IMG/VR virus record: IMGVR_UViG_2675903505_000004 | From: a virus | Lineage: Duplodnaviria > Heunggongvirae > Uroviricota > Caudoviricetes | Direction: 5' to 3' (one strand) | Length of the DNA stretch: 4,030 bases | In this document: in pieces, positions 1 through 4,030 of the stretch | How positions within the stretch are numbered: the first letter of the stretch is position 1 | Layout of the letters: each line of letters opens with the position of its first letter | The notes under the pieces: generated by a model | Seen by the model: only the letters and a program-made list of their open reading frames with translations | What the model was told of the DNA's origin: nothing | The model's database searches: none | Made by a program: the position numbers and the translations under genes

Positions 1-77
1 GCCACCGTGTATTTCTGGTCAACAACCAGTTGAGCGGATTCGCGTTTAAACTCTGCGCTAAAATTTCTTTTTTTCAT
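1..77 (-). CDS. insN: IS911 OrfA (InsN-like transposase regulatory/DNA-binding subunit), N-terminal 25 codons only; continues past position 1
   Basis: Revcomp of 1-77 translates [25 protein letters not shown], which matches the N-terminus of IS911 OrfA as I remember it. Start ATG is complement of 75-77. Confidence 0.8.
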
Positions 78-334: not shown

Positions 335-598
335 ATGCATCACGTCCACACAGTGAATGGTCTGAAAACATCAATGTCGCGTAAAGGTAACTGTTACGAC
401 AACGCTCCGATGGAAAGCTTCTGGGGAACGCTGAAAAATGAGAGCCTGAGCCACTATCGTTTTAATAACCGGGATGAAGCCATCTCAGTAATACGGGAAT
501 ACATTGAGATTTTCTACAATCGTCAGCGTCGTCACTCTCGTCTGGGGAATATCTCCCCGGCAGCCTTCAGGGAAAAATATCATCAGATGGCTGCTTAA
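335..598 (+). pseudogene. IS3-family transposase (OrfB, DDE integrase core) C-terminal fragment; not IS911
   Basis: Translation contains SMSRKGNCYDNAPMESFWGTLKNE and EYIEIFYNRQRRHSRLGNISP, the conserved C-terminal block around the catalytic E of IS3-family OrfB. Only about 85 codons are present; frame is open from 314 but recognisable homology begins near 345. No upstream catalytic domain, so it is a remnant. It differs from the IS911 OrfB C-terminus as I recall it (GNCWDNSPMERFF). Confidence 0.8.
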
Positions 599-910: not shown

Positions 911-1099
911 ATGAACATTTATTTCAGAATAGTTATATCACTGGCAATTATCGCATGTATTTACGGATTAATCGTTCCGGCCCTCATATCAATGAAGGAT
1001 ACGGTAGCAGTGATTTCTGGCTTTGCTCTGGCGTGTCTGACCCCGCCCTGCATTTATGCCATTTATAAGGGTCTTTCTTTTTCTAAGGATAAAAGATGA
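911..1099 (+). CDS. Small membrane protein, 62 aa, two predicted TM helices with basic C-terminus
   Basis: SD-like AGGAGG at 903-908 then ATG 911. Two hydrophobic segments (RIVISLAIIACIYGLIVPALI and VAVISGFALACLTPPCIYAIY) separated by a short polar loop. Stop TGA 1097-1099 overlaps the next gene's ATG (ATGA at 1096-1099). Confidence 0.55.
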   Translation: MNIYFRIVISLAIIACIYGLIVPALISMKDTVAVISGFALACLTPPCIYAIYKGLSFSKDKR

Positions 1100-1966: not shown

Positions 1967-2716
1967 ATGAATACTGTAACCATCAACAACAAACAGTTTC
2001 CGGTAATCGAATATCGCGGTCAGCGTGTTGTGACGCTGGCGATGATTGATGAAGTCCACCAGCGACCGGAAGGAACCGCGCGTGCAGCATTCAACCGAAA
2101 CCGTGAGCATTTCATCAGCGGTGTGGATTATGCCGAATTAGGTGCGGACGTAATACGTACGGACCTCCCGGAAGGAACATTCTCTAAATTTGCACCATCG
2201 GGGATTGTACTTTTTGAATCAGGTTACCTGATGTTGACGAAGCCATTCAATGACGCCCTTGCCTGGCAGGTTCAGCGCGAACTGGTTAACAGCTACTTCC
2301 GCACTCGCACACCGCTAACGGAAATCGAGATGATCGCTGCGATAGCCGCCGACGCTGTTCGTCAACAGAAGCGCCTGAATCATGTGGAAGAACAGCTCGA
2401 AACAGTCACAGAAGCGGTGGAAACCATCAAACGCGGAAATATGCGCGCCGGATATGTCGGTTACCGCCAGGTGGTAGCCAAAAGTGGAATGAGTGACACC
2501 AAGTGTCGGAATCTGGTGAACGCATATCAAATTCCTACAGACACCCACGAATTCATGACTCCGGACGGTCTGTTGTCTCGCAGGGCTATCGTCGAGCTTG
2601 AGCCATTTATGGCGGCGTTCCACCAAATGATGTCAGAGGCTGACCCACGCGGCACACGCTGGTATCACCCGAAGATGGGGCTTTTCCAGGTGATCGGATG
2701 GGAGGATAAAGCATGA
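1967..2716 (+). CDS. ORF6N/KilA-N-like DNA-binding domain protein (phage antirepressor-like N-domain) with coiled-coil middle and uncharacterised C-terminal domain, 249 aa
   Basis: Start chosen at ATG 1967 (GGAG at 1957-1960, 6-nt spacer) rather than the upstream in-frame ATG 1892 that overlaps the SPFH gene. N-terminus MNTVTINNKQFPVIEYRGQRVVTLAMIDEVHQRPEGTARAAFNRNREHFISGVDYAEL fits the ORF6N/KilA-N pattern. Stop TGA 2714-2716 overlaps the next ATG 2713 (ATGA). Confidence 0.65.
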   Translation: MNTVTINNKQFPVIEYRGQRVVTLAMIDEVHQRPEGTARAAFNRNREHFISGVDYAELGADVIRTDLPEGTFSKFAPSGIVLFESGYLMLTKPFNDALAWQVQRELVNSYFRTRTPLTEIEMIAAIAADAVRQQKRLNHVEEQLETVTEAVETIKRGNMRAGYVGYRQVVAKSGMSDTKCRNLVNAYQIPTDTHEFMTPDGLLSRRAIVELEPFMAAFHQMMSEADPRGTRWYHPKMGLFQVIGWEDKA

Positions 2717-3282
2717 TCATCCAGTCAAAACTTATTCGCGCCGCTCTGGTGTGCGCTGCTAAAAACGACGTTCGTTATTACCTGAACGGTCTTCACATCA
2801 CGCCGAAACATATTGAGGCAACCAATGGTTCCGTGGCACTGCGCATGGCTCACGGCATCCGGACGAAGAAAAACATCATTGTCCAGTTCGAAGGGGGCGT
2901 CCCGGCCAAAGCCGAAACGACAGAGCTGATTTTTAGTAAAGAGCCGATCGCTGTTCATCGCGACCAGTTTCAGCGACGACTGTCCATTACCGGCATTAAA
3001 CTGGTGGACGGTTGTTTTCCGGATTTGGATCGCATCATTCCGAAAAAGTTTGACCGCTGTACTCACCCGGTGCTCCAGGCGGGTTACCTGAGTTATCCAG
3101 AGAAGATGTTTGGTCGTGAGCGTAAATTTATTCCCGTCCAGTTACGTCCCTCCGGTGACGGGCAAGCGGTCAGAATTCAGTTTGATTCCATCATCAACTC
3201 AATGTATGGCAATCCTGAATTTGTTGTGATGCCTTGTCGTGATCATGGCGATTTCAACGTGGCTCAGGAGCATCCGGAATGA
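2713..3282 (+). CDS. DNA polymerase III beta sliding clamp (DnaN) domain II-III-like protein; truncated clamp homolog lacking domain I, 189 aa
   Basis: Three blocks align with E. coli DnaN as recalled: AKNDVRYYLNGLHI vs AHQDVRYYLNGMLF (domain II), IKLVDGCFPDLDRIIPKK vs SKLVDGRFPDYRRVLPKN (domain II/III junction), and EFVVMPCR vs AYVVMPMRL (extreme C-terminus). The domain III equivalent is shortened. Own SD GGAGGA at 2701-2706. Stop TGA 3280-3282 overlaps the next ATG 3279. Confidence 0.65.
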   Translation: MIIQSKLIRAALVCAAKNDVRYYLNGLHITPKHIEATNGSVALRMAHGIRTKKNIIVQFEGGVPAKAETTELIFSKEPIAVHRDQFQRRLSITGIKLVDGCFPDLDRIIPKKFDRCTHPVLQAGYLSYPEKMFGRERKFIPVQLRPSGDGQAVRIQFDSIINSMYGNPEFVVMPCRDHGDFNVAQEHPE

Positions 3283-3401
3283 AAATCGAATACCAGGACG
3301 CCGCAGGAGGTGAATCAATGAGCTGGCCTGATGCAATCGTAACTCTGGGGATGGTATTCGCAGTAGCGTTTGTTGTGTACTCGATTTGTCGATGGGGATA
3401 A
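3279..3401 (+). CDS. Tiny single-TM membrane peptide (40 aa from ATG 3279; alternative start ATG 3318 gives 27 aa)
   Basis: Not in the supplied ORF track (too short). Translation MKIEYQDAAGGESMSWPDAIVTLGMVFAVAFVVYSICRWG, stop TAA 3399-3401. ATG 3279 is ATGA-coupled to the clamp-like gene with AGGAG at 3266-3270; the internal ATG 3318 is preceded by a strong AGGAGG at 3305-3310. Hydrophobic core LGMVFAVAFVVYSI. Confidence 0.3.
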   Translation: MKIEYQDAAGGESMSWPDAIVTLGMVFAVAFVVYSICRWG

Positions 3402-3405
3402 CCAC

Positions 3406-3648
3406 ATGTTCGCTTTGATTCAACGCGGGCAGATATACACAGACAGAGCCGGATACCCAGTAGAAATTACTCGCAGTACTGAGCACTCAGTGTTCTTTCG
3501 GAGGATGGACGGACGTACCGGGCGAGTACGCATCGGTGAATTCAGTAGCCTGTTCGAGCATATTGACCACCTGGAATATCACAAGATTCTGGCTGAAACA
3601 GAACAAGAAAAGCACCTGAAGAAATTACGCGCAATGCAAAGGAAGTAA
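3406..3648 (+). CDS. Small phage-type protein, DUF4222-like, 80 aa
   Basis: Start ATG 3406 (MFALIQRGQIYTDRAGYPVEITRSTEHSVFFRRMDGRTGRVRIGEFSSLFEHID...) preferred over the track's ATG 3370, which would overlap the upstream peptide. The spacing of YxDxxG, V.IT, V.F.RR and GEF...F resembles DUF4222 proteins from lambdoid prophages as I recall them. Stop TAA 3646-3648. Confidence 0.45.
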   Translation: MFALIQRGQIYTDRAGYPVEITRSTEHSVFFRRMDGRTGRVRIGEFSSLFEHIDHLEYHKILAETEQEKHLKKLRAMQRK

Positions 3649-3651
3649 AAA

Positions 3652-3798
3652 ATGAATAAAGCGTTTGAGCTATGGGTCCACCAGCGTTACGGCAACCACT
3701 ACGACCTGACGCGAGATGTTGACGGTTTCTACTGTCGTGAAATTGTGAAACGAATGTTTGAGGTCTGGTGCCACTGCCGTGGGCTGAGTGTTGTGTGA
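3652..3798 (+). CDS. Small Cys/His-containing protein, 48 aa
   Basis: Not in the supplied ORF track. SD AGGAAG at 3638-3643, then ATG 3652, only 3 nt after the upstream stop. Translation MNKAFELWVHQRYGNHYDLTRDVDGFYCREIVKRMFEVWCHCRGLSVV, stop TGA 3796-3798. Possible metal ligands C28, C40, H41, C42. Confidence 0.3.
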   Translation: MNKAFELWVHQRYGNHYDLTRDVDGFYCREIVKRMFEVWCHCRGLSVV

Positions 3799-3806
3799 GG
3801 TAATGC

Positions 3807-4004
3807 ATGGGCAATGTGATTCAACTGGCTCCCAATGAATGGGTTTGTGAAAGCGTTCTAATCGCAATTACCGGGCTCAAACCAGGCACAATTCTTCGGA
3901 CCCGGAAAGAATGCTGGATGGTTGGAAGAGAGTATATTCACGTATCACCAGACGGTAATCCAAAGCCTTCTGAAGTGGTCAACAAAAACTGGCCACCGAG
4001 TTAG
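3807..4004 (+). CDS. Excisionase-like (phage Xis/DUF1233-like) protein, 3' end disrupted by IS911-like insertion; chimeric ORF whose last 10 codons and stop are IS-derived
   Basis: SD GAGG at 3797-3800 then ATG 3807. Translation MGNVIQLAPNEWVCESVLIAITGLKPGTILRTRKECWMVGREYIHVSPDGNPKPS resembles excisionase-like small DNA-binding proteins of lambdoid prophages (recalled motif TGLKPGTI...RK.CWM.GREY.H..PDGNPKP). From codon 3972 onward the reading frame lies inside the IS inverted repeat (EVVNKNWPPS, then stop). Confidence 0.5.
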   Translation: MGNVIQLAPNEWVCESVLIAITGLKPGTILRTRKECWMVGREYIHVSPDGNPKPSEVVNKNWPPS

Positions 4005-4006
4005 AG
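3971..4006 (-). repeat. IS911-like terminal inverted repeat (IRR), 36 bp
   Basis: 24 of 36 positions identical to the revcomp of 114-149, including the terminal TGAAGTGG and the GGCCACC core. Confidence 0.75.
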
Positions 4007-4030
4007 TTTTTCCAGTATCGATTTTCCGAT
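3971..4030 (-). mobile_element. IS911-like (IS3 family) insertion sequence, partial: IRR end; element body continues beyond window end
   Basis: 3971-4006 reads TGAAGTGGTCAACAAAAACTGGCCACCGAGTTAGAG, the imperfect inverted-repeat partner of the element end at 114-149. The outer tip is at 3971 and the body extends rightward, so the element is in the same (minus) orientation as the left copy. Confidence 0.75.

Follow-up and report, generated by a model that had tools for sequence, protein, structure and literature searches.

Are the two short open reading frames (ORFs) that lie in the variable accessory region directly upstream of the excisionase gene xis of a lambdoid prophage genuine genes, and if so, what may their products do? 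This question was raised by a stretch of 4,030 nucleotides (nt) of viral DNA, the IMG/VR record IMGVR_UViG_2675903505_000004, hereafter referred to as the window. An initial annotation had proposed two micro-ORFs within an otherwise gapless operon, one for a transmembrane (TM) peptide of 27 to 40 amino acids (aa), here called ORF A, and another for a 48-aa Cys/His mini-protein, here called ORF B. Both were indeed present in this gapless operon, each with its own well-spaced Shine–Dalgarno (SD) sequence. With 71 ORFs of at least 20 aa in the window, the existence of an ORF alone is not significant, and it is the conservation that lifts ORFs A and B above chance. From comparison of sequences we consider, with a probability of about 0.6, that they represent two independent and genuine micro-genes, that ORF A would encode a partner-binding membrane peptide and ORF B a soluble binding mini-domain rather than a zinc knuckle, and that both, together with the DUF4222 gene between them, would make up a mosaic cassette.

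Conservation of the 27-codon micro-gene

Loci for comparison, drawn from IMG/VR, GenBank phages and E. coli genomes, were those surrounding either a DUF4222 homologue or the peptide. ORF A, counted from ATG 3318, was intact and exactly 27 codons long in 173 of 174 related loci, and the diversity of the peptide amounted to 22 protein alleles, 33 DNA alleles and 111 distinct contexts. The deep alleles showed DNA identities of 65–78%, with proportions of synonymous differences (pS) of 0.34–0.69 and of non-synonymous differences (pN) of 0.10–0.26. When 15 pairs of six deep alleles were pooled, the pN/pS ratio was 0.33 (pS 0.52 versus pN 0.17), and stop codons were found in the other two sense frames of all 33 DNA alleles. 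The SD sequence and ATG were kept in every context, with GGAGG located 6–9 nt before ATG. This ATG overlapped the stop codon of the upstream gene as ATGA in 105 of the 111 contexts, the exceptions being a few cases of TGATG and the junction class of the window itself, in which neither arrangement was observed. Since the last codons of the upstream gene (...QEVNQ-stop or ...EDILR-stop) form the SD sequence of the peptide gene, these codons should recombine together with it. Judged by this conservation, ORF A is a genuine phage micro-gene under purifying selection. The sole broken copy among the 174 loci, L065 (IMG/VR UViG_2609459844_000008), carries one extra G within a GGGGG run, leading to a frameshift; this could be either a sequencing error or a real inactivation.

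One antisense frame was mostly open and mirrored the sense frame in pN/pS (0.36 versus 0.33), and thus the selection ratio alone does not pick the strand. Such mirroring is expected where the third codon positions of two frames coincide. The gene was assigned to the sense strand because its SD sequence, ATG and stop codon are conserved and because within the window the mirroring antisense frame has no ORF reaching 20 aa; the flanks of this frame also differ between contexts. Antisense ORFs have been annotated over the peptide in phages POCJ13 (gp73) and Stx2 II (ORF C38) (L189:606-734 and L188:101-850, both on the minus strand). They are probably spurious, because their frames carry stops in 9 or 16 of the 33 alleles.

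An opposing view would see in one of the ORFs, or in both, a chance frame or a decaying relic without function, and would attribute the conservation signal to a gene on the opposite strand or to recent shared descent. Besides the annotated antisense ORFs and the open antisense frame, this view could draw on the differences between close peptide alleles, which are mostly non-synonymous (three against no synonymous difference), and on the host element being a degraded remnant. We regard it as very improbable: the deep alleles described above keep start, stop, length and key residues, and in ORF B the synonymous sites are saturated while the protein stays well conserved, as detailed below.

Start codon of ORF A and origin of its 40-codon form

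In the initial annotation ORF A was coupled by ATGA to the upstream beta-clamp-like gene. The overlap of ATG 3279 with the TGA of this gene is present (3279–3282), but the conserved start of the family is located at 3318. The genes upstream of the peptide vary between loci, being of DUF551 type, of Ea22/EaA type, coiled-coil proteins or the clamp-like gene. Homology of the window to loci with other upstream genes begins at 3287–3318, corresponding to the ribosome-binding site (RBS) of the peptide, and not at 3279. Those upstream genes terminate in ...PEPPQEVNQ-stop with CAGGAGGTGAATCAATGA. In the Salmonella prophage locus L095, the clamp-like gene is followed, via the same ATGA, by a 74-aa gene reading MKIEYQDYGAVANIV..., preceded by the junction ...GGGAGCATCTGGGATGAAAATCGAATACCAGGAC. 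Alignment of window 3279–3321 with L095:1590-1650 placed a recombination joint at approximately 3293–3300, at a CCAGGAC/CCAGAAC microhomology. The relic downstream of this joint carries both the GGAGG of the peptide (3306–3310, 7 nt before ATG 3318) and the ancestral ATGA overlap (3318–3321). The 13-aa extension upstream of ATG 3318 was identical even on the diverged peptide allele P0058, and thus it belongs to the junction and not to the peptide.

Taken together, this comparison indicates that the 40-aa ORF is a deletion-junction chimera, in which the stump of the 74-aa gene is fused in frame, via a DUF551-type tail, to the peptide, and that the start of the family is ATG 3318, giving 27 codons and not 40. 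The 40-aa 'gene' of RefSeq is an annotation artefact, which owes its existence to a deletion that placed a defunct start codon in frame with a real micro-gene. Since both starts have good SD sequences, both forms may be made in this lineage.

Distribution and annotation of the 27-aa peptide

The peptide region was detected in 1021 of 5426 complete E. coli genomes, about a fifth, with up to 5 copies per genome. It was also found in 90–95 phage records, including 933W, VT2-Sakai, Min27, Stx1- and Stx2-converting phages, BP-4795, ArgO145 and the Vequintavirinae phage Av-05, and in at least 496 IMG/VR stretches. In addition, 180 plasmids (154 from Escherichia, 25 from Salmonella and one from Klebsiella) carry the peptide, mostly non-mobilisable replicons of about 90–105 kb, which we take to be phage-plasmids.

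The bare 27-codon ORF was annotated in none of 13 examined records, among them 933W, BP-4795, ArgO145, Av-05, O157:H7 PA20 and O104:H4 C227-11; in a fourteenth, Stx2 II, no sense-strand gene was listed over the peptide. The only annotated version among the examined records was the accidental 40-aa form in RefSeq. The description of both micro-ORFs as unannotated and often missed is thus accurate for the ORF list supplied with the window and for the 27-codon form; it fails for RefSeq, where both are listed as hypothetical proteins (WP_255625547.1 and WP_001030135.1), and for the 48-aa protein, which is also catalogued as PHROG 3871. Searches of Pfam, NCBIfam, PHROGs and PADLOC with both the 40-aa and 27-aa forms gave nothing significant. 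A DUF883_C glycine-zipper anchor was considered for the peptide and set aside, as its best match (E 0.029), seen for 3 of 8 alleles but not for that of the window, was below threshold.

No named homologue of the peptide was found in the lambda exo-xis region, and a six-frame search with hidden Markov models of the K-12 prophages CPS-53, Rac, DLP12, e14 and Qin gave only E values above 0.1. YpdJ, YlcG and YdaE, tried as possible relatives, were unrelated. We suggest that its absence from K-12 explains why small-protein screens in K-12 never met the peptide. In K-12 CPS-53, yfdT (L181:12150-12185) ends in ...SQQEVK-stop with CAAGAGGTGAAATAA, the same tail that carries the RBS of the peptide in other phages, and no ORF for the peptide comes after it; in K-12 the docking site seems to persist in the absence of the micro-gene.

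Predicted features and possible role of the 27-aa peptide

The alleles conform to the consensus M-[STN]-W-P-[DE]-A-x-x-x-[VL]-G-x-[AV]-x-A-[VA]-A-[LF]-V-V-[YF]-S-I-C-R-W-G, in which M1, W3, G11, A15, R25 and W26 never vary among the alleles seen. In agreement with the TM peptide proposed initially, the best 19-residue window (residues 6–24) gave a mean Kyte–Doolittle hydropathy of 2.42, indicating a clear predicted TM segment, and this segment was hydrophobic in all 22 protein alleles. Two interfacial Trp residues bracket the span; the sole basic residue is C-terminal and the sole acidic one N-terminal, so that an N-out, C-in topology is predicted by the positive-inside rule. G11xxxA15 and the small residue 22 fall on one side of the helix, which suggests helix packing.

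From these features we propose the following model. The peptide would be translated by termination–reinitiation coupling with the upstream gene, because its GGAGG sits in the last codons of that gene. As the peptide has no promoter of its own, it would be made along with the phage early genes, early in lytic growth. The product would be a single-pass inner-membrane micro-protein with its acidic N-terminus (W3-P4-D/E5) in the periplasm and R25-W26 at the cytoplasmic face. It may bind a host or phage membrane protein by helix–helix contact through G11xxxA15 and the small residue 22, and this partner may be modulated during lytic development or the lysis–lysogeny decision. A more specific version of the model is tentative: the peptide might be a common but overlooked effector in temperate phages of enterobacteria, such as 933W and VT2-Sakai, and in some lytic ones, which early in infection or induction inserts into the inner membrane and binds a specific host membrane machine via G11xxxA15, and thereby shifts the lysis–lysogeny decision or blocks superinfection.

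Could the 27-codon ORF instead serve translation of the next gene? The SD sequence of the DUF4222 gene lies in the last two codons of the peptide, only 4 nt separate the two genes, and DUF4222 is directly downstream in 62 of the 111 contexts. The ORF might then act as a coupling relay for DUF4222 translation, or as a stabiliser of the mRNA end, with the peptide itself irrelevant. In 46 of the 111 contexts, however, no ORF of at least 40 aa starts within 60 nt downstream, and yet the 27 codons and the same invariant residues are found, the W26-G27 codons being retained even in loci without a downstream DUF4222 gene. This implies that the product of the peptide gene matters and not only its translation. 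With the purifying selection at the amino-acid level over the whole ORF, a mere relay appears to us most unlikely. In the two such contexts that were read, ArgO145 and vB_EcoS-666R9, a terminator-like hairpin directly follows the peptide, and in 933W the hok/sok locus comes next.

A membrane-damaging toxin, like Hok, Ldr, Ibs, TisB or a holin, which kills or permeabilises the host when the early operon is on, would be another explanation for 27 residues that are nearly all hydrophobic with one C-terminal Arg. Lambdoid early operons indeed hold other small host-killing genes (kil, kilR, dicB and ydfD), and in Stx phages the peptide lies directly upstream of hok/sok. This adjacency is seen in only some contexts, however, and the peptide has neither an antisense RNA nor its own promoter nor an Rfam match; it is coupled to ordinary early genes outside the lysis cassette. 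Its presence in a fifth of complete E. coli genomes, in up to five copies and with no linked antitoxin, also argues against a toxin, and the small invariant residues G11 and A15 would be better explained by specific packing of helices than by general disruption of the membrane. We consider a toxin unlikely on this evidence. A holin or antiholin was rejected, as the peptide is found among early accessory genes by xis, or between the replication and nin genes, and not in a lysis cassette.

The 48-aa protein encoded by ORF B

ORF B starts 3 nt after the DUF4222 stop codon (TAA 3646–3648, ATG 3652), exactly as first described, and its AAGGAAG sequence was kept in 29 of 29 downstream variants. The protein matched the profile of PHROG 3871 over its full length (E 9e-35, residues 1–48 on positions 1–48 of 48). 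By profile search, 238 clusters were detected in Escherichia, Shigella, Salmonella, Citrobacter, Klebsiella, Enterobacter, Cronobacter, Pantoea and Hafnia, nearly all of 44–48 aa and named hypothetical or 'bacteriophage protein'. The ratio of non-synonymous to synonymous substitution (dN/dS) was 0.04–0.18 against the window allele; compared with Salmonella and metagenomic alleles, synonymous sites were saturated and the protein was 73–81% identical. These values point to strong purifying selection on the 48-aa gene. Together with the scarcity of frame loss in ORF A, they uphold the view that both are real small protein-coding genes. The 48-aa gene also occurs in loci that lack DUF4222, namely adjacent to xis in Salmonella, behind RusA in a nin region and behind a DUF7740 gene; the gene is mobile between phage contexts.

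The AlphaFold2 model, based on a 33-sequence alignment (predicted local distance difference test score 87.8), consists of a helix at residues 3–13, a short hairpin and a second helix at residues 30–43. No solved structure resembling it was found, and among predicted viral structures only uncharacterised proteins matched. Residues F5, E6, Y13, G14, Y17, D18, L19, D22, G25, Y27, R29, E30, V32, K33, R34, M35, E37 and W39, aromatic or charged for the most part, are at least 90% conserved in the family. We propose that the product would be a small cytoplasmic or soluble helix-hairpin-helix mini-domain, in which the conserved aromatic and charged residues would form the core and a surface binding another macromolecule.

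The initial annotation had read its CxnCHC arrangement as a small metal-binding knuckle. In favour of such a zinc-binding Cys/His knuckle, which might bind metal as a dimer, C28, C40, H41 and C42 are present in most members (C42 in at least 90%), and accessory proteins of the neighbourhood are often zinc proteins, such as lambda Ea8.5 and Orf73 (PMC8614690, PMC10834534). Comparison with relatives is against it. No Cys or His was invariant in 43 homologues, and every proposed ligand is naturally replaced: F or A may stand in place of C28, one of R, Y, S and H in place of C40, one of Y, E, F and S in place of H41, and one of H, R and L in place of C42. The family consensus has Arg at the positions of H10 and H16. 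If ligand geometry is read from the secondary structure of the AlphaFold2 model, C28 lies just before helix 30–43 and C40/H41/C42 in its last turn, and because these are opposite ends of one predicted helix, C28 and C40/C42 could not share one ion within the monomer. No zinc-finger model matched, the only such hit being Cmr2_Zn-bd at E 0.064 in one of 43 members. The 48-aa protein is thus probably not a zinc binder, and we hold the knuckle to be quite unlikely. The value of this protein is mainly negative, as it is already catalogued and its zinc-knuckle reading fails against its relatives.

A candidate neighbour of the zinc type occurs in Salmonella, where a 71-aa protein with a CxC...CPFC pattern (CGC...CPFC; MTSKRRLRRKQCGCKKRH...YRCPFCNNYH) is encoded directly upstream of the 48-aa homologue (L095:2289-2504); it is a far better candidate for a zinc ribbon than the 48-aa protein. 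Decayed copies of the 48-aa gene were found among loci of the L070 type (three loci) and in L015, one variant being truncated at 29 aa and another lacking the start, so that its ORF begins at an internal Met. The family is split into a 44-aa form (...CHCRG-stop) and a 48-aa form (...CHCRGLSVV-stop), the break point being a recombination boundary at window 3782. The 90% protein cluster of the 48-aa protein (3652–3795) also contains 80-aa DUF4222 proteins, apparently bridged by read-through fusions. The fusions P0081 (DUF4222 with the 48-aa protein), P0114 (the 48-aa protein with Xis) and P0136 (NinH with the 48-aa protein) were not accepted as functional linkage, since they are probably read-through, frameshift or assembly artefacts.

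The DUF4222 gene and linkage of the three genes

DUF4222 genes 37–41% identical to that of the window have neither a hydrophobic micro-ORF upstream nor a member of the ORF B family downstream. An obligate module of peptide, DUF4222 and 48-aa protein was rejected, since each is found without the others. Instead, the trio is a successful recent mosaic cassette of E. coli and Shigella lambdoid phages. The DUF4222 family is small, with 20 representatives at E ≤0.001 among 1.8 billion proteins. Within this family, RgdR (ECs1581) is a prophage regulator of the type III secretion system of the LEE in O157:H7 (PMC3378721, PMC10877973), and its RGD motif is reported to be important for activity (PMC3378721). 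The window protein reads Q-R-G-Q at residues 6–9, in which RGQ (7–9) would be the putative equivalent of RGD. Lambda Orf55, considered as a counterpart of the DUF4222 protein, showed no similarity.

Organization of the prophage remnant

The window represents the integrase-proximal end of a degraded lambdoid prophage remnant, in all likelihood from Shigella flexneri (Table 1). The operon runs head to tail on the plus strand in the order 62-aa protein, SPFH protein, ORF6N protein, clamp-like protein, ORF A, DUF4222, ORF B and excisionase. Its closest matches over window 2700–3970 are E. coli and Shigella chromosomes (99.8% identity), and the exact 40-aa and 48-aa products, which go by the name 'bacteriophage protein [Shigella flexneri]', each occur on at least 1000 public contigs. 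Similarity to intact prophages stops at window 3970 (query position 1271), followed by the insertion sequence (IS) IS911; intact relatives continue into the integrase gene, and there the element adjoins yecN-cmoA. The boxing-in of the remnant by IS elements is a pattern typical of Shigella-type genome decay.

Table 1. Features of the window (positions from its first nucleotide)
Feature	Position	Strand	Remarks
IS3-family orfA, start	1–77	-	reads leftwards from 77
IS600-type transposase gene, 3' end	335–598	+	
62-aa membrane protein	911–1099	+	PHROG 1130, 'moron' category
SPFH/Band-7 lipoprotein, 275 aa	1096–1923	+	PHROG 200; lipobox-like LVGC at residues 17–20
ORF6N antirepressor-like protein	1967–2716	+	
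Beta-clamp-like protein, 189 aa	2713–3282	+	Pfam E 0.0073, TIGR00663 E 1.2e-4
AGGAG SD sequence	3266–3270	+	8 nt before ATG 3279; originally served the deleted 74-aa gene
40-aa ORF	3279–3401	+	RefSeq WP_255625547.1; 13-aa junction-derived extension plus 27-aa peptide
Relic, first 7 codons (MKIEYQD) of 74-aa gene	3279–3299	+	from comparison with Salmonella prophage locus L095
Relic, last codons (...PQEVNQ-stop) and TGA of DUF551/Ea22-type upstream gene	3300–3321	+	
Conserved 27-aa micro-gene (ORF A), MSWPDAIVTLGMVFAVAFVVYSICRWG	3318–3401	+	predicted single-pass membrane peptide
GGGGA SD sequence of DUF4222 gene	3394–3398	+	7 nt before ATG 3406; within peptide codons W26-G27
DUF4222 (RgdR-family) gene, 80 aa	3406–3648	+	Pfam PF13973, 57.1 bits versus cut-off 27
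AAGGAAG SD sequence	3639–3645	+	ends 6 nt before ATG 3652; within last DUF4222 codons
48-aa gene (ORF B), MNKAFELWVHQRYGNHYDLTRDVDGFYCREIVKRMFEVWCHCRGLSVV	3652–3798	+	PHROG 3871; predicted helix-hairpin-helix
GAGG SD sequence of excisionase gene	3797–3800	+	serves ATG 3807; overlaps TGA of 48-aa gene
Excisionase (DUF1233) gene	3807–~3970	+	truncated by IS911 end; Pfam PF06806, E 7e-23
IS911 end	3971–4030		

No promoter-like site was found in 2600–4030, and neither micro-gene carries a promoter-like or terminator-like site or an Rfam match (E up to 1). Among the other genes, the 62-aa membrane protein is ATGA-coupled to the SPFH lipoprotein, so that the operon includes another pair directed to the membrane. 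FtsH is regulated by SPFH proteins such as HflK/C, and this would be relevant to lysogeny control. The clamp-like protein shows a weak similarity to the beta clamp of DNA polymerase III, in its central domain, and is called 'beta clamp domain-containing protein' in newer RefSeq annotations; its best PHROG is 3007 (E 5.9e-65), whose label, 'RusA-like Holliday junction resolvase', looks wrong.

Points against the proposed model

Several observations weigh against the reading of two functional genes with binding products. The start used in the window may be 3279 or 3318, as the sequence, with two good SD sequences, fits either. In a Shigella-type remnant with a truncated xis and IS elements on both sides, the micro-genes may no longer be expressed at all, and the antisense mirroring described above bears on the selection ratio of ORF A. 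A 'conserved helical face' of the peptide was unsupported, since 6801 of 10000 shuffles gave a conservation moment at least as high, and one allele has A in place of S22; because the test was not significant, helix packing stays a suggestion. The peptide sequence strings occurred neither in the papers searched nor in the supplements of a paper on small genes of Sakai and a preprint on the microproteome of Enterobacteriaceae. As for ORF B, comparisons of structure and sequence yielded no relative with a known function, and for this reason 'binding protein' is a default assignment.

Comparison with known systems

The class of small single-pass inner-membrane proteins includes AcrZ, MgtS, KdpF, CydX and YohP, and its characterised members bind a larger membrane protein. 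Small inner-membrane proteins of E. coli reportedly came from screens with RBS models and ribosome profiling, said to be those of Hemm et al. 2008 and Weaver et al. 2019. The 27-aa peptide resembles the AcrZ class in being shorter than 50 aa, with one hydrophobic helix and a strong SD sequence, and in being missed by standard gene callers. It differs from that class in lacking any sequence relationship, in being phage-borne and in its almost constant coupling to an upstream early gene. With type I toxins (Hok/Gef, Ldr, Ibs and TisB) the peptide shares size, hydrophobicity, prophage location and, in 933W, a position next to hokW/sokW; unlike them, it lies inside an operon and has no antisense RNA, regulatory leader or Rfam match.

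The 48-aa protein is a member of PHROG 3871 (related to phrog_17609), a family of phage proteins of unknown function, with no difference from it. This family includes ORF3 of BP-4795, which lies in the same place between DUF4222 and xis. The similarity of the DUF4222 gene to RgdR concerns the neighbour and not the micro-ORFs: both belong to the same Pfam family, but the window protein is 80 aa against 99 and has RGQ at the supposed RGD position, and distant DUF4222 genes are without both micro-ORFs.

The position of the micro-genes is that of the lambda exo-xis region. Like the accessory genes of lambda and Stx phages there (Orf60a, Orf61, Orf63, Orf73, Ea22, Ea8.5 and Orf55; PMC8614690, PMC10834534), they lie in a run of small non-essential early genes ending at xis, whereas none of the three proteins, the peptide, the DUF4222 protein and the 48-aa protein, has a homologue in lambda itself. 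The small early genes of exo-xis are reported to influence the lysis–lysogeny decision (PMC10834534, PMC8614690). In the text of a review on exo-xis proteins, neither 'transmembrane' nor 'DUF4222' occurs.

Biological implications

The 27-aa peptide is new and unnamed, although the kind to which it belongs, the small membrane proteins of phages and bacteria, is well known. If the effector model holds, candidate targets would be a protease, a transporter or a component of DNA entry, and the peptide would become a new and tractable player in the poorly understood exo-xis region. In 933W the peptide directly follows an Ea22-like gene, in a region whose genes reportedly modulate the induction of the prophage and thereby the release of toxin (PMC10834534); should its target be a membrane protein of the host, the induction decision would gain a new factor. 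Being widespread, under purifying selection and consistently overlooked, the peptide represents a testable piece of phage dark matter.

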